Shown: positions 15,062 to 26,947 of the stretch, in pieces | Layout: every line of letters starts with the position of its first letter | Numbering within the stretch: position 1 is the stretch's first letter | Assembly (NCBI GenBank): GCA_021324535.1 | Contig: JAJPIU010000240.1 | Location: forward strand, 6,745-70,744 | DNA length: 64,000 nucleotides | From: Pseudomonadota bacterium | Lineage (GTDB): Bacteria; Chloroflexota; Ktedonobacteria; Ktedonobacterales; JADMIN01 | Direction: 5' to 3' | The notes under the pieces: model-generated | Told to the model about the DNA's origin: nothing | The model's database searches: none | The model's input: only the letters and a program-made list of their open reading frames with translations | Program-made: the position numbers and the translations under genes

Positions 15062-15628
15062 ATGAGCACAAATGCCAATACATCACGCCGTGGGATCGCC
15101 CTGCCAATGGCGGCGCGCACACCTGCGGAATACATTCCCGGCCAGCAAGAGCCAGGGGTGGCGCTGACAAGCCTTGCCGACATGATCACCTGGGCGCAAA
15201 ACTATATTCGTAGCCGATCCATCTGGCCGCTTGGCTATGGGCTGGCTTGCTGCGCCATCGAGATGATGGCCGCCGGCCAGAGCCACTATGATATGGCGCG
15301 GTTCGGCTCCGAGGTGTTCCGCTCTAGCCCACGTCAGGCCGACCTCATGATCGTCGCGGGAACCGTCTCGACGAAGATGGGGCCACGCCTCGTGCGGTTG
15401 TATGAGCAGATGGCCGACCCCAAGTGGGTGATCTCGATGGGCCAGTGCGCCACATCGGGCGGCGAGTTCTACGACAGCTACTACACTGTGCAAGGCGTGG
15501 ACACGTTGGTGCCGGTGGATGTCTATGTGCCTGGCTGCCCACCGCGCCCCGAGGCGTTGATCGAGGGGCTGCTGAAGCTGCGCGAGAAGATTGAGAAACA
15601 AGGCTTAAAGATCAAGGGTGAGGAGTAA
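15062..15628 (+). CDS. nuoB: NADH-quinone oxidoreductase subunit B (NuoB / 20 kDa, PSST family)
   Basis: [31 protein letters not shown] and [11 protein letters not shown]. All four N2-cluster cysteines are present. Confidence 0.9.
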
Positions 15629-15634
15629 GAGCGC

Positions 15635-16321
15635 ATGCGTGGAATCCTCCAGGGGCTGGGGTTGACCCTCAGCCATATGACACGCCCCAAGCAGACGCGG
15701 CTCTATCCCTATGAGAAGCGCCAACTGCCGGAGCGCAGCCGGGGCCTGATCCAGTTGCTCACCGAGGAGGGGCAGGACACACCCTTCAACTTGAAGTGCG
15801 AGGCGTGCCTGCTCTGTGAGAAGGTCTGCCCGCCGCGCGCCATCACCATTGACGCGCGCCCGACGCATCGCTTCCGCCGTCGCCCGTACTTCTCGCCCAC
15901 CTCAGTCGCCGGGTTCTACACGCCGCGTATGTCCGAATATATGGCGCCCTACCCCAATCGCCCGTTCTCGCCGCCAGTGGAGACGCCAACGAAGGTTCAA
16001 CTCGAACAACCGGTTGACCTCACCCTGGCGGATGACATCCTCGACGCGGCCTCACTCGACGCCTGGGACTTGACGGACACGCTGGATAAGCTGATGCAGG
16101 CGTATGGTGGGATGCCGCTTCAGGTAGCGTGGCGCGTGGTCGAACGGCGCGGCGTAGACATCAGCGACATCTTTGGTATCATCACAGCCAGCCCGCACTT
16201 CGCCCCGGCCAAGCCAGTGATGGCGGGCGTGCTGCGCGACGACCAGGTGGAGCGTGGCCCGTCGCCGTCTACACGCTCGAAATATGGCAATATCAACCAT
16301 CGGAGAGGACCGACCGCCTGA
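15635..16321 (+). CDS. NuoI-like protein with a single CxxCxxCxxxCP motif and a Cys-free C-terminal domain of unknown function
   Basis: The N-terminus (RLYPYEKRQLPERSRG...KCEACLLCEKVCPPRAITID) matches NuoI/TYKY. The second ferredoxin motif is missing. The last ~150 aa contain no cysteine. Confidence 0.7.
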   Translation: MRGILQGLGLTLSHMTRPKQTRLYPYEKRQLPERSRGLIQLLTEEGQDTPFNLKCEACLLCEKVCPPRAITIDARPTHRFRRRPYFSPTSVAGFYTPRMSEYMAPYPNRPFSPPVETPTKVQLEQPVDLTLADDILDAASLDAWDLTDTLDKLMQAYGGMPLQVAWRVVERRGVDISDIFGIITASPHFAPAKPVMAGVLRDDQVERGPSPSTRSKYGNINHRRGPTA

Positions 16322-16322
16322 C

Positions 16323-17672
16323 ATGCAGCAGACACAGCAGACACAACATGCTCCCACGCCTCTGCTTCAGGCGATGGGACTCACCGGCGAGGGCAAGGCC
16401 AGCGCCGTCCCGTTTACGCTTGATGATTACCGCAGACAGGGCGGCTACGACGCTCTTCGGCGCGCATTGCGGGAACTCTCACCCACGCAGGTGATTGAGG
16501 AGATTCGTACTTCCGGCCTGCGTGGACGCGGTGGCGCAGGCTATCCCACCGGCGACAAACTGGCGCTGGTAGCCAGCGGGCGCTCAACCATGCGCTATCT
16601 CATCTGCAATGCTTACGACGCTGACGCCCGCTCACTGATCAGCGCAACCCTGCTCGAACAGAATCCGCATCTTGCGCTGGAAGGACTGGCGTTGGCTTCC
16701 TACGCGGCAGGCGTCAGTGAAGCGTTTTTGTATGTGCGTAGCGCGCGCACTGAGGCGGCTGCTTCAGCGCAAAAAGCGGTCGCCGACGCCCTTGAGGCAA
16801 ACCTGATCGGGCGCAACATTATGGGGACGGCGTTCTCGCTGGCAGTCACAGTCGTTGGGGTGGATCGCAGCTTCATGGGTGGCGAGGAAAGCACGCTGAT
16901 CGAGATCATCAAGGGTCGCCCGATGAAGGCGCAGCAGCGTCCGCCATATCCCGCCATGCAGGGCCTCTACGATCAGCCGACCGCTGTGCAGAACGTGGAG
17001 ACGCTTGCCAACCTTCCCGCTATCATCTCGCACGGTGCGGGCGCCTTCCGCCAGAGCGGCTCACGCGCAACAACGGGGACAAAGCTGCTGACAGTGATTG
17101 GCCCAGGCGGCGCGCAACTCATCGAGATTCCCTTTGGCGCAAGCGTCCGTCAGGCGTTGCAACAGGCGGGGATTGACGCCAACGAAAACAACGCGCGCGG
17201 CGTGGTCGTCGGCGGGATGGAGGGCGGCGTGCTGCCGCTCTCGGCGCTCGATACGCCGTTCGACTTTGATCCGCTGGCGCAGGCCGACGCAATGGTTGGC
17301 TCTGGTATGATCGAGGTCTTGCCGGTTGACGCCTGCATGGTACGCTGGGCGATGGAGCGCAGCGACTACCTGAGCGAAGAAACCTGCGGGAAGTGCGTGC
17401 CGTGTCGGGTGGGGGTCAAGCGCATCGCGGGGACACTGCAAGGGCTGGTGAGCAGCCTGGGTCAGCCCGACGACTTGAAGCTACTGGAAGAGTTCTCCCA
17501 CTATGTGCCCGATGGCTCACTCTGCGGCTATGGCGTACATGCGATCCATCCGGTCGTCTCGGCGATGCGCTATTTTGGCGACGATTTTGCGGCGCACCTG
17601 GCGGGGAAGTGTCCCACAGGAACCTGCCAGCCGGTACGCGCGCATCGCTTCAATACAAAGCACGTACTTTAA
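16323..17672 (+). CDS. NuoF-like NADH dehydrogenase flavoprotein (51 kDa family)
   Basis: GLRGRGGAGYPTG (FMN/NADH site), GGEESTLIE, and ETCGKCVPCRVG...SLCGYG (N3-type 4Fe-4S). I prefer the ATG at 16323 (MQQTQQ), 1 nt after the upstream stop, over the track start at 16254. Confidence 0.85.
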   Translation: MQQTQQTQHAPTPLLQAMGLTGEGKASAVPFTLDDYRRQGGYDALRRALRELSPTQVIEEIRTSGLRGRGGAGYPTGDKLALVASGRSTMRYLICNAYDADARSLISATLLEQNPHLALEGLALASYAAGVSEAFLYVRSARTEAAASAQKAVADALEANLIGRNIMGTAFSLAVTVVGVDRSFMGGEESTLIEIIKGRPMKAQQRPPYPAMQGLYDQPTAVQNVETLANLPAIISHGAGAFRQSGSRATTGTKLLTVIGPGGAQLIEIPFGASVRQALQQAGIDANENNARGVVVGGMEGGVLPLSALDTPFDFDPLAQADAMVGSGMIEVLPVDACMVRWAMERSDYLSEETCGKCVPCRVGVKRIAGTLQGLVSSLGQPDDLKLLEEFSHYVPDGSLCGYGVHAIHPVVSAMRYFGDDFAAHLAGKCPTGTCQPVRAHRFNTKHVL

Positions 17673-17707
17673 CGTTCTGAGGCTAGAGCAAGAGCAAGAG
17701 GAAAACA

Positions 17708-20116
17708 ATGGCTATTACAGTTCGCCCCACTGCTTCCGGCGTGGCGCCCACGCCGGGCAGCGATTCGTCTCAGCGGAATGAGTACGGCCAGCCCACCTTC
17801 ACGGTGACGATTGATGGTCGCACGATGCAGGCATATGAGGGGCAGACACTGCTGAGCGTCGCCGAGGAGAACGGTATCCTCGATATTCCCAACCTCTGCA
17901 ACGACGACAAGCTGGAGCCGACCTCTGCCTGTCGCATGTGTCTGGTTGAGATCGAGGGGTTTGACCGCCCGGCGCCCTCGTGCAACACCGCTGCCACGCC
18001 GGGCATGGTGGTGCGCACGAAGTCCGACCGGCTAACGCACATTCGCCGCACCAATCTTGAGATGATCCTCTCGGATCACAACGCCTACTGCCAGCCGCCC
18101 TGCCAGATCGGCTGCCCCACGCATATTGACATCCCTGGCTATCTTGAACTGATCGCCCAAGGGCAGAACCGTGAGGCGGCGCGTCTGGTCAAAGAGGTGC
18201 TGCCCTTCCCCTATATTCTCGGCCTGACCTGCCCGGCGCCCTGCCAGGAGGTCTGTCGGCGTGGGCTGGTGGAGGAAGAGATCGCCATCTGCCGCATGCA
18301 CGGCTTTGCCGCCGAGCAGTGTATAGAAGACCCGCCGACCCCATGGCCGCAGGAAGCGCCGACCGGCAAGAAGGTCGCCATTGTGGGCGCTGGCCCGGCT
18401 GGACTGACGGCGGCGTATTACCTTGCCTTGAAGGGCCACTATTGCAAGGTCTTCGATATGATGCCTCAGCCCGGCGGCATGCTACGCTACGGCATCCCTG
18501 AGTATCGCCTGCCAAAGAACATGATGGATCGCGAGTTGGAGAGCGTCTGGAAGCTCGGCGTGGACGCGCAATACAATGTCAAGTTGGGCGTGGACTTCAC
18601 GATTGACGACCTCTTCAACGAGGGCTTCGATGCCGTGTTCCTGGCGATTGGCTGCTGGACATCCAACGAGCTTGGCTTGCCCGGCGAGGATAATCCGGGG
18701 GTCGTCAACGCCATTACCTATCTGATGGATAAGACGCAGGGCCTGCCGGTTCCAGTGGACGATACGCGCGAGGTGGTCGTGTTGGGCGGCGGCTTCACGA
18801 CGTTCGACTGCACGCGCACCTCGCTTCGCCTGGGCGCGAAGGTACATACGGTCTACCGCCGCGGACGCCAGGAGATGACCGCCACTTTTGAGGAGGTAGA
18901 GGACGGCCAGAGCGAGGGCACTGACCTCCAACTCTTCGCCTCGGCCAGCAGCTTGAAGATCAACGATAAGGGTGAACTGACCGGCATCGAGTTCCAGCGC
19001 ATGAAGCTTGGTGAGCCGGACTCTTCAGGCCGCCGACGCCCCGTGCCCATCGAAGGCAGTGAGTATGTCATCGAGTGCGACACGGTGATTCCGGCGTATG
19101 GTCAGAAGTGCGACCGCTCGGTGTTGCCCGATGAATACTGGACGAAGCGCACGACCATTGAGACCGATCCCTACAACTTCATGACGAAGCGCAAGGGTGT
19201 CTTCGCCGCTGGCGACGCCGTGCTGGGCGCTGCGACGATCATCCAGGGCATCGGTCAGGCCAAGCTGGCCGCCCGCGCGATTGACGCCTACCTGCGCGGC
19301 GAGGATATGGCCGCCGTCTCGAAGCGCATCGAGGCCGAGGAGGCCAAGCCCGACCTCTTCGACATCGTGCCCTACAAGCCAGTTGAGCCGAAGGTGAAGA
19401 TGCCCATGCTGCCCTATGAGGAGCGCAAGCGCAACTTCCGCCTGATCGAACTTGGCTACACGCCTGAGCAAGCAAAACGCGAGGCAGGGCGCTGTCTGCA
19501 ATGCGCCTGTCCGGCAGCGGGACAATGCGACCTGCAAAAGCATAGCATCGAGTATGGTCTGACGGATAACCGTTTCCACGACGGCGAGCCGACCGACTAT
19601 CATGACTATGAATTTGATATGTCGCACAGCTTCATCCTACGTGACCCCAACAAGTGCATCAACTGCACGCAGTGTGTGCGCGTTTGCCATGATGTGATTG
19701 GCCCGAACTGTTACGGCATGTTTGGCAAGGGCTTCGATACGATTGTCTCGACACCGTTCAACGTCTCGCTCCACGCGACCGACTGTGTGTCGTGTGGAGC
19801 GTGCGTGCAGGTCTGCCCGACCGGCTCGCTGATGATGGCTGAACGCGAGCTGGTGCGCTGGGACTTCGCGCTCGACCGCTGCATCTTCTGCGGCGACTGC
19901 GTAGAGGTCTGCCCACACGGCGCGCTTGGCGAGACGCCAAACTTCGAGCTATCGTTCTACAATCGCTTCGGCGAAGACATCAACATGCCCATGCAGGATG
20001 TCGCCCGCGCGCCGTCGTTCCTGGTGCGCCAGCGTGTGCCACGCAAACAGGGCGACGCCATGGAGGAGCCAAACCCGCTGGTGCGCCCGCTGCCCGCACG
20101 GCGCATCAGAGAGTAA
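17708..20116 (+). CDS. Fusion protein: NuoG-type N-terminal [2Fe-2S] domain, GltD-like (glutamate synthase small-subunit family) FAD/NAD(P)H oxidoreductase, and NuoG-type plus 2x[4Fe-4S] ferredoxin C-terminus
   Basis: FTVTIDGRTMQAYEGQTLL...CRMCLVEIEG; CQPPCQIGCP...CPAPCQEVC; KKVAIVGAGPAGLTAAYYL and VVVLGGGFTTFDC Rossmann motifs; CINCTQCVRVCHDV; CVSCGACVQVCPTG; CIFCGDCVEVCPHG. Confidence 0.85.
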   Translation: MAITVRPTASGVAPTPGSDSSQRNEYGQPTFTVTIDGRTMQAYEGQTLLSVAEENGILDIPNLCNDDKLEPTSACRMCLVEIEGFDRPAPSCNTAATPGMVVRTKSDRLTHIRRTNLEMILSDHNAYCQPPCQIGCPTHIDIPGYLELIAQGQNREAARLVKEVLPFPYILGLTCPAPCQEVCRRGLVEEEIAICRMHGFAAEQCIEDPPTPWPQEAPTGKKVAIVGAGPAGLTAAYYLALKGHYCKVFDMMPQPGGMLRYGIPEYRLPKNMMDRELESVWKLGVDAQYNVKLGVDFTIDDLFNEGFDAVFLAIGCWTSNELGLPGEDNPGVVNAITYLMDKTQGLPVPVDDTREVVVLGGGFTTFDCTRTSLRLGAKVHTVYRRGRQEMTATFEEVEDGQSEGTDLQLFASASSLKINDKGELTGIEFQRMKLGEPDSSGRRRPVPIEGSEYVIECDTVIPAYGQKCDRSVLPDEYWTKRTTIETDPYNFMTKRKGVFAAGDAVLGAATIIQGIGQAKLAARAIDAYLRGEDMAAVSKRIEAEEAKPDLFDIVPYKPVEPKVKMPMLPYEERKRNFRLIELGYTPEQAKREAGRCLQCACPAAGQCDLQKHSIEYGLTDNRFHDGEPTDYHDYEFDMSHSFILRDPNKCINCTQCVRVCHDVIGPNCYGMFGKGFDTIVSTPFNVSLHATDCVSCGACVQVCPTGSLMMAERELVRWDFALDRCIFCGDCVEVCPHGALGETPNFELSFYNRFGEDINMPMQDVARAPSFLVRQRVPRKQGDAMEEPNPLVRPLPARRIRE

Positions 20117-20140
20117 CCTCACCCCCTGTCCCCTCATTCA

Positions 20141-20173
20141 TCCCCTTCCCCACACGGGAAGGGGGCTTTTTTT
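20141..20173 (+). terminator. Rho-independent terminator of the nuo-like operon
   Basis: CCCCTTCCC-CACAC-GGGAAGGGG stem-loop followed by CTTTTTTTG, about 25 nt after the stop at 20116. Confidence 0.8.
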
Positions 20174-20240
20174 GTGTGTGGACAGCTTCCGCCGAAGCGT
20201 CGCGCTCCTGGGCGGCGTGTCTTGCCTGACGAGATGGATG

Positions 20241-20384: not shown

Positions 20385-21266
20385 ATGGAGCGATTCATGT
20401 CGTGGTTCTTCAGGCGTTGGCGACGCAGCCCAGTGACCAACGAGCCAACGGCGCCGGATAATTATCTCTACGGCGAAAGTGAGGCAGAGACCAGCCGCCT
20501 CGATTTCCAGCACTATATGTTTCGCCTTGCCTTTAACGGCGATTATTCCGCGCCGATCCGGGGAATAGGCGACATTCTCGATGTCGCCTGTGGCACGGGA
20601 CGTTGGGCGCGCGATATGGCGCGCCGCTTTCCACAGGCGAACGTGGTGGGCTTTGATCTCAACCGCAACCTTCTGGATGCCTCGCTCGCCGAAGGCACTG
20701 ACATCATGCCGGAGAATTGCACGTTTGTCACTGGCGACGCCTTGCAACCCTTCGCGTTTCCTGATGGCGCGTTCAGTTTCGTGATGGCCCGCGCCTGTTC
20801 ATCGTTTATCCCAACGGATCAGTGGCCACAGGTAGTGAGCCAGATGGCGCGTGTCACGCAACCGGGTGGCTGGATCGAAGTGCGCGACTTTGGGCAGGTA
20901 CGTAGCACAAACGTCGCGCTCAACGCGCTGACCCAGCGATTTACCACGCTGGCGCAGGCGCGTGGTATCCATCCCGGCTCCGGCGCGTTCCTCCAATCGT
21001 ATCTCACGCAGGCGCGTCTGCGCGATGTCCAGATACGCCAGGTTCGCCTGCGTAGCGGGGCGCAGCGTGCGACCAGAGCGGGTCAACTCATGCTGGCGGA
21101 TTACCTGGCTATTCTTGAACGGGTGGCGCCCCTCATTGAGCGCGCGGGCCTGGCCAGCGCTGAGCAGTGGCAATCGCTCGTGGCGCAGGCGCGTTACGAG
21201 ACGCGCCTGGCCCCCGACATGCAATATGCCGAGGTCGAGTTGACTGCCGCCTTCGGTCGGCGCTGA
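20385..21266 (+). CDS. Class I SAM-dependent methyltransferase
   Basis: Motif I ILDVACGTGRWARDMA, VVGFDLN and a post-motif GGWIEV. The start may instead be the ATG at 20397. Confidence 0.8.
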   Translation: MERFMSWFFRRWRRSPVTNEPTAPDNYLYGESEAETSRLDFQHYMFRLAFNGDYSAPIRGIGDILDVACGTGRWARDMARRFPQANVVGFDLNRNLLDASLAEGTDIMPENCTFVTGDALQPFAFPDGAFSFVMARACSSFIPTDQWPQVVSQMARVTQPGGWIEVRDFGQVRSTNVALNALTQRFTTLAQARGIHPGSGAFLQSYLTQARLRDVQIRQVRLRSGAQRATRAGQLMLADYLAILERVAPLIERAGLASAEQWQSLVAQARYETRLAPDMQYAEVELTAAFGRR

Positions 21267-23614: not shown

Positions 23615-24760
23615 TTACCCCGCGAATGGGAGTTGCAGGCCGGGGCGCACGTCGAGGTCGAAGCCGTTGCGCTCACCCAGCCGCAGATGAAAGTACGCCG
23701 CCGCGCCAATCATCGCCGCGTTGTCGGTGCAGAGCGCCACTGGCGGAAAACGCAGAGCAATCCCCAATGGCGTAAGCTCTGCTGTCAGCCGTTCACGTAG
23801 CGCCAGATTGGCCGCCACACCGCCCGCCAGCAACACCTGGCGCACGCCAAGTGTCCGCGCTGCCTGGGTTGTCTTCGTCGCCAGCACATCCACTACAGCT
23901 TCCTGAAAAGCCGCCGCCAGATCGGGGATGCTCAGCGCCGCCGCGCCCTCAGCCGATTCGCCAGCGCGGCGGTAGCGACTCCCCTTTGTTTTTGCGCTGG
24001 CCTTCGTCTGACTGGCGCCTGCATTCAAAGCGCCCTTTACTATCTCAAGCGTCGCCGTCTTCAGGCCGCTGAAGCTGAAATCGTAGCTGTCCTTCAGCCA
24101 GGCGCGCGGCAGGCGATAAGGATTGGGCTGCGCAGGGTCGCGCTGGCGGGCGGCGCGCTCAATGGCCGGGCCGCCCGGATAGCCCAGCCCCAGCAGCCGC
24201 GAGACTTTATCAAACGCCTCGCCTGCCGCATCGTCGCGCGTCTGCCCCAGCAGTTCATAGCGTCCGTGGTGAGGAATCGAGACAAGTTCGGTATGCGCGC
24301 CGGAGATCACCAGCGCCAGCAGCGGAAACTGCGGGTCGCCTGGCCATACCTCGTGATCGACATCCGTCGGAGGCGCATCGCTAACCGCTTCTGTGCGTAG
24401 CCAGTTGGCGTAGATGTGCGCTTCGAGATGGTTGACGCCTAGGAAGGGTAGGCCGCGCGCCATCGCCATGGTTTTGCCCGCCGTCAGGCCGACCAACAGC
24501 GAACCGGCCAGCCCCGGCCCATATGTCGCCGCGATGGCGTCAATCTGCTCCCAGCCAATCCCGGCCTCGGCAAACGCCATATCGAGCGTGGGGATGAGCG
24601 CGCTCACCTGCTGGCGCGAGGCCACCTCAGGCACCACGCCGCCATAGCGCGCATGGACGCTTGCCTGCGAGGCGACCACGTTCGCACGAATGATGCGCCC
24701 GTCCTCGATGATGGCAGCGCCCGTCTCGTCACAGGAGCTTTCAATTGCAAGAATCCGCAT
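23615..24760 (-). CDS. tsaD: tRNA N6-adenosine threonylcarbamoyltransferase TsaD
   Basis: MRILAIESSCDETGAAII..., HLEAHIYA, and the Kae1/TsaD fold pattern. It carries a ~35-aa Lys/Ala/Ser-rich insertion. Confidence 0.9.
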   Translation of the reverse strand: MRILAIESSCDETGAAIIEDGRIIRANVVASQASVHARYGGVVPEVASRQQVSALIPTLDMAFAEAGIGWEQIDAIAATYGPGLAGSLLVGLTAGKTMAMARGLPFLGVNHLEAHIYANWLRTEAVSDAPPTDVDHEVWPGDPQFPLLALVISGAHTELVSIPHHGRYELLGQTRDDAAGEAFDKVSRLLGLGYPGGPAIERAARQRDPAQPNPYRLPRAWLKDSYDFSFSGLKTATLEIVKGALNAGASQTKASAKTKGSRYRRAGESAEGAAALSIPDLAAAFQEAVVDVLATKTTQAARTLGVRQVLLAGGVAANLALRERLTAELTPLGIALRFPPVALCTDNAAMIGAAAYFHLRLGERNGFDLDVRPGLQLPFAG

Positions 24761-24773
24761 AACTTGCCCGGCC

Positions 24774-25421
24774 TTACCCTATCACCGCAGGCGAGTTGTC
24801 CGCCTCAAGCCGCGCCAGCAGCTTCGCGCGCAACTGCGAGAAACGCTCGGCGTAGGCGGGGGTATCAATATCATCGGTGGTCATGATGTAGGCGTCCTCG
24901 TTGTTATCGCTGTAATAGCGGCGGCGGCGGCCTTCTTGCTTGAAGCCATATTTGCGATAGAGGTTCTGTGCAATAGTATTGGAAACACGCACCTCGAGCG
25001 TCACGCGGGCGGCGTGGATGGTGTAGGCGATGCCGATCAGCGACGAGAGCATCAACTCGCCAACGCCGCGTCCCCGATAGGCAGGATGCGCCGCGATGGT
25101 AGTGATATGCGCCTCATCCACCATCAGCCAGAGGCCCGCGAAGCCAACAATCGTGGCAGCGTCGGGCGTGACCTGTTGCGAGCGATGCGGCAGCCAGGAG
25201 AACGGGAAGGGACGCCGGGGCGGTGATTCCTTATTCGCCGGTTGCGCCATGACCAGTTCGTTCAGGCGCGTGTCGCGCACAACGATATAGTGCGCTGTGC
25301 GCTTCTCTTGTAGTTCGCCGCGATAGGCGCTGGGTGGCCAGGGTGTCGGATACGCCAGTTTCTCGATCTCGACAACCCGTGGGATGTCGCCAAGCGTCAT
25401 CCGATCAACCACGTAACGCAT
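24774..25421 (-). CDS. rimI: Ribosomal-protein-alanine N-acetyltransferase RimI (GNAT)
   Basis: Start MRYVVDRMTLGDIPRVVEIEKLAYPTPW at 25421. GNAT motif A is RGRGVGELMLSSLI. The track ORF's N-terminal extension overlaps tsaB and is rejected. Confidence 0.85.
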   Translation of the reverse strand: MRYVVDRMTLGDIPRVVEIEKLAYPTPWPPSAYRGELQEKRTAHYIVVRDTRLNELVMAQPANKESPPRRPFPFSWLPHRSQQVTPDAATIVGFAGLWLMVDEAHITTIAAHPAYRGRGVGELMLSSLIGIAYTIHAARVTLEVRVSNTIAQNLYRKYGFKQEGRRRRYYSDNNEDAYIMTTDDIDTPAYAERFSQLRAKLLARLEADNSPAVIG

Positions 25422-26313
25422 GCGTGGTCCCTTCTTCGTGTTCTTGCTGTTCCGGTTGCTGTATGCGCTGCATACGCTGGTCGAGCGTCGGCTTCGCGCT
25501 GGTGGTGATGGCCGGTCGCCGCAAATACAGCGGTTCGAGCGCGGCCAGGTCTTCGGTTGTGTTGAGCGCGCCTTGCCCTGTCGCCAGCCGCGCCAATGCC
25601 AGTTGCGCCAGGCTCCATGCGCGCCGTGGGGTCGCATCGAAGCGCGCCTGTACGCCCTGAACGGCAAGCGCAGCCTCAATCGCTGCTCGCGTGTCGGGTC
25701 GCCACTCGCCACAGAGCAACGTCTCGGTTGACTCGCGCGCCAACGCCTCCACCAGCCGCTCAGGAGCCATTACCTGATAGCGCGCCTGGGCGTCGGCGCC
25801 TTCGCCTGGCTGCCCTTCAGCGGTGGGCATGAGAACAGGCGTTGGCCCCCATGCGCTTATGCCGAGTATGTTAGCGTCTCTATAAGAAATATAACGCGCG
25901 GCGTAGACTTCGCCACGTCCTGCGTCGAGCAGCGACCAGACGGGTTCCTGCGCGGGTAGTGTGGCGTATGCGCCCCAGGCGATTATGTCGAGTGTGGGAT
26001 GCGCTGAGACGGGTACGCCAAGCGCAAAGCCAAGCGATTTCGCGGTTGTCACGGCGACACGCACGCCATTGAACGAGCCGGGGCCGGTCGCCACAGCCAG
26101 CGCCGTTATCTGCGCCATGTCGGCGTTCTGCGTGCGGAGCAGCCATTCGATGCGCTGAAGCAGTTCGACGCTATGCCTCTGGCCCACCTCCCAGGTATGC
26201 TCAACAAGCAGGCGCTGCTGAATGGAGAGCATGGCGTCGGCGGCGGCTGCTGGTGGATACGCCACAAGCGCGACGGTGGCGAGGCTGGTGGAGGTGTCAA
26301 TCGCCAGCAGCAT
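25405..26313 (-). CDS. tsaB: tRNA threonylcarbamoyladenosine biosynthesis protein TsaB, with a C-terminal extension
   Basis: Start MLLAIDTSTSLATVAL at 26313. GPGSFNGVRVAVTTAK motif. Overlaps rimI by 17 nt. Confidence 0.85.
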   Translation of the reverse strand: MLLAIDTSTSLATVALVAYPPAAAADAMLSIQQRLLVEHTWEVGQRHSVELLQRIEWLLRTQNADMAQITALAVATGPGSFNGVRVAVTTAKSLGFALGVPVSAHPTLDIIAWGAYATLPAQEPVWSLLDAGRGEVYAARYISYRDANILGISAWGPTPVLMPTAEGQPGEGADAQARYQVMAPERLVEALARESTETLLCGEWRPDTRAAIEAALAVQGVQARFDATPRRAWSLAQLALARLATGQGALNTTEDLAALEPLYLRRPAITTSAKPTLDQRMQRIQQPEQQEHEEGTTHALRG

Positions 26314-26947
26314 GCGCGCGCTCCTTCTGGGGACGTTTGGATGTGGGCGTCGGTGTGGCTCCTGAGGAAATTTGGTTTGGAGTGACAGATAGCGCCGCCT
26401 GCGCAAAAGCAGCGAGCAGCGCCATACCCCGTGCGCCATGCGCCGAGCAGTGTAACTCGCGCAGTTCACGTCCGCCGCTGCCCTTTGCGCCAGGCATGGA
26501 GAAGCGGATGTGCAGCCAGCTCGCGGGCCAGGGTGAGGCAGCGCCATGCGCCCCATCGGCGTATTCGCCCCGCTCAGCCCACTCTACCACACTCACGCCA
26601 TCGCCGCCAAAGTAGTCCTCGAAGCCAAGCGCGCTCACTTCTTCAGGCGTCTCGATGCGATAGAGATCGAAATGGTAGAGCGACAGCCGCCCGACGTATT
26701 CTTTGAGGATGGTGAAGGTGGGGCTGTTGACGGTGGAGGTAACTCCCAGGCCACGCGCGATCCCCTGGGTGAAGGCGGTTTTGCCAGCGCCTAGCGCGCC
26801 CTGTAAGAGGATGACATCGCCAGAGACGAGCAGTTCGCCAAGCAGCGCGCCCAGCCGATGCGTCTCAGCAAGGCTGCGGCTGACCAGTGTTGCTTCAACA
26901 GGAGGATTATTGCTGTTCTGGCTCACGGAGCTGCTCCAATGTATCAC
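26297..26947 (-). CDS. tsaE: tRNA threonylcarbamoyladenosine biosynthesis ATPase TsaE, with a C-terminal extension
   Basis: LQGALGAGKTAFTQGIARGLG P-loop, SPTFTI and LYHFDLYR motifs. A possible GTG start lies at 26926. Overlaps tsaB by 17 nt. Confidence 0.85.
   Translation of the reverse strand: MIHWSSSVSQNSNNPPVEATLVSRSLAETHRLGALLGELLVSGDVILLQGALGAGKTAFTQGIARGLGVTSTVNSPTFTILKEYVGRLSLYHFDLYRIETPEEVSALGFEDYFGGDGVSVVEWAERGEYADGAHGAASPWPASWLHIRFSMPGAKGSGGRELRELHCSAHGARGMALLAAFAQAALSVTPNQISSGATPTPTSKRPQKERAHAAGD

Follow-up and report, generated by a model that had tools for sequence, protein, structure and literature searches.

The stretch of DNA analyzed here, referred to as the window, comprises 64,000 nucleotides of contig JAJPIU010000240.1 from a member of the Ktedonobacterales (Chloroflexota). 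Between positions 15062 and 20116, it carries an operon of four genes, labeled g1 to g4 in their order (compared loci and compared proteins carry L- and P-numbers, respectively), which encode a NuoB, a protein that joins parts of NuoI and NuoE, a NuoF-like protein, and a fusion of NuoG-type, GltD-like, and NuoI-type domains. As a first-pass annotation had described from the sequence, the four genes lie on the + strand with intergenic gaps of 6, 1, and 35 nt, end at a strong terminator-like hairpin, and are flanked by genes for a PKD protein and a class I methyltransferase. The region also occurs, in identical form, on two other public metagenome contigs. The domain calls of that annotation for all four proteins were upheld by hidden Markov model (HMM) searches with Pfam and NCBIfam. 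The features of the operon, whose products are predicted to carry flavin mononucleotide (FMN), flavin adenine dinucleotide (FAD), and iron-sulfur (Fe-S) clusters, are as follows; gene boundaries were taken from the open reading frame (ORF) list.

15062-15628, + strand: g1, 188 amino acids (aa), NuoB of the 20 kDa/PSST type and carrier of cluster N2 (HMM match and Cys63/64/129/159)
15635-16321, + strand: g2, 228 aa
15635-15886, + strand: g2 residues 1-84, N-terminal half of NuoI with an amphipathic N-terminus and the first CxxCxxCxxxCP motif (TIGR01971 positions 1-71, 51 bits)
15887-16000, + strand: g2 residues 85-122, Pro-rich linker, no family match by HMM
16001-16237, + strand: g2 residues ~123-201, N-terminal four-helix domain of the NuoE/HydC/StnA/NfnC type (profile search, AlphaFold2, Foldseek)
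16323-17672, + strand: g3, 449 aa (a longer GTG start at 16254 is in the ORF list), NuoF-like core with FMN, NADH site, and N3 (Complex1_51K 1e-29, NADH_4Fe-4S 1.5e-21)
17708-20116, + strand: g4, 802 aa
17795-18025, + strand: g4 residues 30-106, NuoG/HydA-type [2Fe-2S] domain (Fer2_4 1.9e-19; Cys64/75/78/92)
18086-19303, + strand: g4 residues ~127-532, GltD/NfnB-like insert with two [4Fe-4S] clusters, FAD, and NAD(P)H Rossmann folds (Fer4_20 2e-17, Pyr_redox_2 1.4e-22)
19493-19837, + strand: g4 residues 596-710, NuoG/HydA-type clusters (Cys596/599/601/607 site, motif 1 from Cys650, motif 2 from Cys693)
19844-20032, + strand: g4 residues 713-775, C-terminal half of NuoI with the third motif CIFCGDCVEVCPHGALGETPNFELSF (Cys725-735; TIGR01971 positions 75-111)
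20141-20175, + strand: intrinsic-terminator-like hairpin and T run at the operon end (hairpin 20141-20165, 10 pairs, 7 of them G-C, tail CTTTTTTTGT)

A NuoI divided between two proteins

The central feature of the operon is that NuoI is split between g2 and g4. The NuoI match of g2 is limited to about residues 1-85 (model positions ~1-74 of 121), and a profile of g2 run against solved chains matched NuoI/TYKY at an E value of 3e-14 over residues 1-83. The protein has four cysteines in all (Cys55/58/61/65), which form a single CxxCxxCxxxCP motif. The second such motif is the last one of g4, so that the two motifs that bind clusters N6a and N6b in an undivided NuoI reside on separate proteins (g2 Cys55-65 and g4 Cys725-735). 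When g2 residues 1-84 and g4 residues 713-802 were joined into a chimera, the NuoI model aligned in one stretch over positions 1-111 with 95.9 bits, compared to 51 bits for the g2 half and 39 bits for the g4 tail alone (the model cutoff is 113). Since the halves join into one continuous match, each protein holds one unpaired half of NuoI, and the NuoE-F-GltD/G block consequently sits inside NuoI. The division is a family trait: all 19 g2-like proteins (19/19) contain exactly one Cys motif, and all eight g4-like tails (8/8) contain three motifs, the last always of the NuoI C-half type.

The remainder of g2 is of a different origin. The first-pass annotation had called the protein a truncated NuoI; the NuoI match is indeed confined to the N-terminus, but what follows is the N-terminal helical domain of NuoE. 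Profile matches over residues ~123-201 were obtained to NfnC (9bov_C, 5.7e-10), StnA (8oh5_A, 9e-9), and HydC (8a6t_C, 6e-7). An AlphaFold2 (AF2) model built from a 31-sequence alignment was confident for the N-terminal helix and for residues 120-200, which form a four-helix bundle, with a predicted local distance difference test (pLDDT) score of 74-93 in the NuoE-like bundle and below 50 for residues 18-115. The top Foldseek matches of the bundle were the C subunits of Nfn-ABC, StnABC, and HydABC together with NDUFV2, with a root mean square deviation of 1.5 Å over 66 columns to 9bov_C. That the NuoI half appears unfolded on its own in this model is compatible with a need for a partner and is no proof of one. 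The same annotation had listed NuoE as absent. This holds for its thioredoxin-like [2Fe-2S] domain, as g2 contains no Cys beyond the NuoI motif, but not for the helical domain. It should be added that no Pfam domain of g2 scored above threshold.

The fourth protein follows StnC/NfnA to residue ~710 and is NuoI-like thereafter. Its residues 32-731 matched 9bov_A (1.5e-180), 8oh5_C (1.7e-163), and 9n5u_A (2.3e-149), all of the StnC/NfnA type. Within this span, the GltD-like insert matched the NfnI large subunit 5jca_L (2e-81) and GltD 6s6s_G (3.6e-55), and it contains Rossmann motifs and a YRR...EM stretch, which we take to be typical of NADPH-binding GltD/NfnB proteins. The next two motifs correspond to the FS4A/FS4B pair and align column by column to residues 557-695 of StnC 8oh5_C; Fer4_Nqo3 was detected at 3.7e-7, and Fer4 motifs were detected as well. 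For the third motif, CIFCGDCVEVCPHGALGETPNFELSF, StnC offers no equivalent; this motif matches the latter half of the NuoI model. The earlier description of g4 as a fusion of a NuoG-type [2Fe-2S] domain and a GltD-like flavoenzyme thus stands, and the last motif of its NuoG/ferredoxin-type tail can be narrowed to the second half of NuoI. An FdhF-like (molybdopterin-like) C-terminal domain is absent from g4, which stops at residue 802 after the NuoI half. The best NCBIfam score of g4, which was below cutoff, was to a putative glutamate synthase small subunit model.

The third protein was correctly recognized as a NuoF-like FMN/4Fe-4S protein, as the two Pfam matches listed above attest; its cluster ligands are Cys355/358/361/401. 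It scored 323 bits with the nuoF_fam model, under the equivalog cutoff of 558, matched Escherichia coli NuoF (7p64_F) at 1.1e-76, and aligned to residues 115-533 of the 584-aa StnB (8oh5_B) at 1.6e-99. No Fer4 or thioredoxin-like match was obtained for g3, from which the N-terminal [2Fe-2S] and C-terminal 2x[4Fe-4S] domains of StnB/BfuB are absent.

The first protein is, as had been proposed, a canonical NuoB with all four N2 cysteines (Cys63/64/129/159) in canonical spacing. Oxidored_q6 was detected at 3e-29, and the NCBIfam NuoB subfamily model scored 236 bits against a cutoff of 116. Over 140 core columns, g1 is on average 64.2% identical to 78 canonical NuoBs, a panel that consists of the best matches to g1 and thereby slightly inflates this value; canonical NuoBs are 66.2 ± 2.2% identical to one another over the same columns. 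NuoBs of the quartet type are 62.5-64.2% identical to canonical NuoBs, and those from full variant operons 61-63%. Because the identity of g1 lies near the canonical mean and is comparable to that of NuoBs from full variant operons, there is no sign that g1 has lost NuoD and NuoH as partners, and the constraint on it appears not to be relaxed relative to complex I NuoBs. Across distant lineages, the identities of NuoB and NuoD are too saturated to resolve a variant clade, with the exception of the L179 NuoD, which is 63% identical to a Limnocylindria NuoD. A NuoB scan of a genome collection returned four relevant Chloroflexota loci among the matches listed.

A hydrogenase remnant was considered and rejected. 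Hydrogenase small-subunit models scored at most 26 bits on g1, no large subunit is encoded in the window (tblastn), and the NuoDs of related operons are of the complex I type, with the signatures MGPQHPSTHG and ...GEVDR and no CxxC pairs as NiFe ligands. The short NuoD (358 aa) was likewise discarded as a mark of a soluble form, as ordinary nuo operons contain equally short NuoDs.

Operon contexts of the relatives

The window offers no further part of a complex I. As previously stated, NuoC, NuoD, NuoH, and antiporter-like subunits are not encoded in it, and tblastn searches with queries from related loci (E≤0.01) gave no match for NuoA, C, D, H, J, K, L, M, or N within the 64 kb. A search for related sequences in a plasmid collection found none. 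Relatives of the operon are nonetheless abundant. Two overlapping searches of 90%-identity clusters yielded 489 and 773 matches to g2; the 489 homologues are conserved over the full length, and identity is 71% or higher throughout the best 120. When 1.84 billion representatives were searched exhaustively with phmmer, 36 clusters emerged at E≤1e-10. Those homologues that carry names are from metagenome-assembled genomes (MAGs) of Ktedonobacterales, within the Chloroflexota. Decay of the operon into pseudogenes was dismissed, since hundreds of homologues are conserved at full length.

The quartet is conserved as a unit, which the first-pass annotation had left to be examined. It recurs with varying neighbors in other Ktedonobacteria (L003, L004, L086-88, and L089-90; L004 carries the label Chloroflexia). 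As an aside, the g4 homologue of L004 (12737-15150), from a long-read MAG, is broken into three reading frames, which are probably indel errors and not a pseudogene.

Outside the Ktedonobacteria, the same genes are found amid those of complex I. In distant members, the g2-g3-g4 block occupies, in every context, the position that nuoI has in ordinary operons. The block always closes with a gene that ends in the NuoI C-half; where the operon goes on, in L091 (nuoC-D-H-g2-g3-g4-J-K) and L092 (nuoD-H-g2-[NuoE domain+NuoF+GltD]-[NuoG-N+NuoI-C]-J-K-L-M-N), this gene directly precedes nuoJ. Two others begin with nuoA-B-C-D-H and continue with a g2::nuoF fusion (L095) or with g2-g3-g4 (L096), and nuoH lies directly upstream of the block in L094, L097, and L122. 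The operon of L179 (7408-16619) reads nuoA-B-C-D-H-g2-g3-g4, followed by a small ORF and a rubrerythrin gene and no nuoJ-N downstream; its g4 is 60% identical to that of the window. The domains have also been shuffled: L092 (2076-6023) encodes a 1048-aa protein with a thioredoxin-like domain, NuoF, and GltD next to a separate 265-aa protein of NuoG-N and the NuoI C-half. Distant g2-like clusters combine the NuoI N-half with a complete NuoE, including the thioredoxin-like [2Fe-2S] domain (retained in P0257, P0258, P0273, P0290, and P0296), and one 607-aa distant member holds the NuoI N-half, the NuoE N-domain, and NuoF in a single chain. A further protein, P0315 (228 aa), joins the NuoI N-half and the start of the NuoE-like domain to the C-terminus of NuoH, which may reflect a rearrangement or an artefact of assembly or gene calling.

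An intermediate arrangement was found in Limnocylindria. Here, ~75 metagenomic loci contain the operon nuoB-nuoD-g2-g3-g4. A search with NuoH seeded from L096, in which matches named Limnocylindria were followed, recovered a second operon, nuoA-C-H-J-K-L-M-N (L176-L178), in which 4 nt separate H and J. This second locus contains no B, D, I, E, F, or G and is the exact complement of the first. The nuoD gene, a neighbor of nuoB both in Limnocylindria and in the relatives with full operons, is absent from the quartet operon, and the Ktedonobacteria quartet is one step further split than the Limnocylindria arrangement.

A side observation concerns the gene that always follows the Limnocylindria operon nuoB-nuoD-g2-g3-g4, a Methyltransf_28 (PF02636) gene (L083 14637-15704 and L085 14338-15441; also in L107, L110, L116, L127, L131, L138, L139, L153, L165, and L166). 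Methyltransf_28 is the family of NDUFAF7/MidA, a mitochondrial methyltransferase that modifies NDUFS2, the homologue of NuoD.

A probable part of a complex I, and the alternatives

The normal constraint on NuoB and the operon contexts of the relatives lead us to take the quartet as a detached, cofactor-bearing redox arm. It would belong to a non-canonical complex I, split in this way, that is confined to one clade within the Chloroflexota, a reading that we regard as probable. NuoA, C, D, H, and J-N would then be encoded elsewhere in the genome, and the quartet would assemble with this membrane arm. Cave Ktedonobacteria have been reported to carry the nuo module M00144 (PMC13374853), which we count in favor of this reading; literature searches on the nuo genes of Ktedonobacteria brought up no other relevant statement. 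The first-pass annotation had named a scattered but canonical complex I as the outcome that would speak against its own reading; the complex is very probably split, but canonical it is not. Of its two proposals, a detachable electron-input module comes closer to the truth than a soluble enzyme.

In the arrangement that we propose, a block related to Stn/NfnABC (NuoE-like, NuoF-like, and NuoG-N with embedded GltD) would have been inserted inside nuoI, such that the N-half of NuoI became fused to NuoE, which in g2 is reduced to the NuoF-binding helical domain, and the C-half to the end of the NuoG/GltD protein g4. The genes would then have been distributed over one, two, or more loci depending on the lineage, with the window representing the most reduced redox operon. 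The half-ferredoxin motifs of g2 and g4 could rebuild N6a/N6b across the g2-g4 interface, and the Pro-rich linker of g2, ~40 residues long, could keep the NuoF module attached to the NuoI site. NADH would reduce the FMN of g3, and NADPH would reduce the FAD of the GltD insert in g4. Both flavins would feed the Fe-S chain of g4, from which electrons would pass via the split NuoI (N6a/b) to N2 of NuoB and on to a (mena)quinone, bound in a pocket to which NuoD and NuoH would contribute; proton pumping would be coupled to this transfer. In reverse, quinol and the proton-motive force could reduce NAD(P)+; both the use of NADPH and the direction of electron flow are predictions. The StnC branch that lies past the HydA-type pair is a remnant without function (PMC10482914). 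The same branch in g4 continues into the NuoI C-half, which would provide a plausible exit to N6a/b, N2, and quinone. Because the elements of Stn/Nfn-ABC bifurcation are missing, simple non-bifurcating electron transfer is expected. A speculative role would be NAD(P)H oxidation in respiration or reverse flow from quinol to NAD(P)+ in trace-gas-oxidising Ktedonobacteria, a lifestyle described elsewhere (PMC13374853, PMC6776052).

Several points weigh against this reading. No partner operon was recovered from any Ktedonobacterium: nuoA/C/D/H/J-N are absent from the 10 kb on either side of the quartet in four further Ktedonobacteria, as they are from the window. The two Limnocylindria half-operons are linked by a shared class label, from which their origin in a single genome is presumed. 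NuoB is too conserved for its identity to prove retained binding of NuoD, and the predicted NADPH use of g4 is drawn entirely from the homology of its GltD-like domain. Reconstitution of N6a/N6b in trans is likewise predicted from sequence, and an AF2 model of the fused g2N+g4C chimera, run on a single sequence, was uninformative (pLDDT 36.8).

Compared with canonical complex I (NuoA-N/Nqo1-14, NDH-1), the quartet shares NuoB with its N2 cysteines, the FMN, NADH, and N3 motifs of the NuoF core, the NuoG-type [2Fe-2S] and [4Fe-4S] clusters, and both cluster motifs of NuoI, and the operons of relatives share NuoA, H, J, K, L, M, and N as well as NuoC and NuoD. It differs in that NuoI extends over two polypeptides; that E-F-G lie inside nuoI, between nuoH and nuoJ, and not between nuoD and nuoH; that NuoE is fused to the NuoI N-half and lacks the [2Fe-2S] (N1a) domain; that NuoG lacks the large molybdopterin-like C-terminal domain and contains the GltD insert as a second nicotinamide site; and that the genes are spread over at least two loci in Limnocylindria and, presumably, in the genome of the window.

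StnABC and NfnABC (PDB 8oh5, 9bov, and 9n5u; PMC10482914, PMC12018979) resemble g4 end to end over residues 32-731, g3 in the StnB/NfnB core, and the C-half of g2 in the StnA/NfnC N-domain. The quartet, however, lacks the N- and C-terminal cluster domains of StnB, the [2Fe-2S] domain of StnA, and the FdhF-like C-terminal domain of StnC, in place of which it continues into the NuoI C-half and NuoB, and its homologues are associated with membrane complex I genes in relatives. The predicted Nuo-Bfu of Geobacter, Planctomycetes, and Nitrospirae (PMC9304861) shares the idea of a HydABC-family input module in the middle of a nuo cluster. As described, Nuo-Bfu has an intact nuoI, no GltD/NADPH domain, and a full BfuBC core, including a ferredoxin-type domain on BfuB (PMC9304861). 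The domain by which BfuB was defined there is absent from g3. In the Mbx-like complexes of Thermotoga and proteobacteria (PMC4758237), a GltD-type NAD(P)H flavoprotein was similarly recruited next to the NuoI position, but there GltD is said to replace NuoI in a ferredoxin-linked, Mrp/Mbx-type complex without NuoF or NuoG (PMC4758237), whereas the quartet keeps NuoI in split form and embeds GltD in a NuoG-like subunit alongside NuoF. None of these four nearest systems combines a split NuoI, a truncated and fused NuoE, and a GltD-bearing NuoG-like subunit, and full-text literature searches found no description of such a complex, although one may have been published.

The strongest competitor, which we nonetheless consider unlikely, is that a canonical nuoA-N set is also present in the genome and that the quartet is an alternative peripheral arm, an exchangeable NuoB/NuoI/input module in competition for one NuoC/D/H membrane base, through which, for example, NADPH could feed the quinone pool, or drain it, in certain conditions. 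Some bacteria do possess two sets of complex I genes (PMC4758237), and the M00144 call for Ktedonobacteria would be easier to explain with canonical nuoE, nuoG, and nuoI present. The quartet also brings along a NuoB and a divided NuoI, as an exchange at the NuoB/NuoD interface would require. In every relative with a readable context, however, the variant genes replace nuoI and nuoEFG, and a second canonical set was seen in none of the loci. To our knowledge, there is also no precedent for the exchange of NuoB on an assembled Q-module.

An improbable explanation, which builds on the soluble oxidoreductase without a quinone pocket that the first-pass annotation had offered as one option, is a stand-alone cytoplasmic NADH/NADPH oxidoreductase or transhydrogenase, in which N2 of NuoB would be the terminal site that reduces a soluble acceptor without NuoD/NuoH. 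The absence of NuoD, NuoC, and NuoH genes nearby in five Ktedonobacteria contexts, the loss of NuoD from the operon relative to Limnocylindria, and the derivation of g3 and g4 from soluble Stn/Nfn-type enzymes would all suit it. Against this, g1 is conserved like the NuoBs of full complex I operons, and in all other lineages the homologous block is part of membrane-complex operons, lying between nuoH and nuoJ in relatives and being complemented by a second operon in Limnocylindria. The NuoI N-terminus of g2 is, in addition, invariant across the family; in complex I, this N-terminal segment contacts the NuoH/NuoD region. The cluster domains at both ends of StnB and the [2Fe-2S] domain of StnA, which include the ferredoxin-reducing domain, are also missing. 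We consider this reading probably wrong.

Least probable is a Bfu-type enzyme, either Nfn/Stn-like or Nuo-Bfu, in which electron bifurcation would link NADH and NADPH to a low-potential ferredoxin: among solved structures, g3 and g4 come nearest to the bifurcating Nfn-ABC and StnABC, and membrane-bound Nuo-Bfu complexes have been predicted (PMC9304861), but the 449-aa g3 covers the NuoF core of StnB alone, g2 lacks the C-subunit [2Fe-2S] domain, and Stn bifurcation resides in the StnAB parts that are missing from g2 and g3, the FAD of StnC not being bifurcating (PMC10482914).

Few energy-converting enzymes have been studied as much as complex I, whose core of 14 subunits is regarded as almost invariant among the NADH-oxidising forms. 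If the quartet is the detached redox arm of a variant complex I, then its electron path can be reassembled from other polypeptide parts, with NuoI cut in two, NuoE serving as a tether, and GltD placed in NuoG. It would also directly link the NADPH pool to the quinone pool or to the proton-motive force, and running in reverse it would make NADPH from quinol, which suits bacteria that live on atmospheric H2/CO and fix CO2. A bolder extension is that abundant soil Chloroflexota, among them Ktedonobacteria, Limnocylindria, and their relatives, respire with an undescribed complex I, a proton-pumping NAD(P)H:quinone oxidoreductase with a two-polypeptide NuoI and a built-in NADPH site; we put this forward tentatively, at somewhat less than an even chance. 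The ecological weight would be considerable, as the lineages are dominant in many soils and g2 is found in hundreds of 90%-identity clusters. With g2 under the threshold of every Pfam domain and g4 drawing its best score, itself below cutoff, from a putative glutamate synthase small subunit model, pathway calls could misjudge the completeness of complex I in such genomes.

Neighboring genes and isolated observations

The class I methyltransferase gene downstream of the quartet (window 20385-21266) is unrelated to Methyltransf_28 and is not conserved beside the quartet. An orphan cluster of another kind was seen in an Acidobacteriota MAG (L035 9995-11579), which carries a nuoB, a full-length nuoI, and a second nuoB consecutively; the neighbors checked included no NuoD, NuoC, or NuoH. 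Finally, the window at 23615-26556 (- strand) carries an ordinary tsaD/acetyltransferase/tsaB-like/tsaE cluster for t6A tRNA modification, which was assigned from Pfam matches on the identical contig L001 and is unrelated to the quartet.

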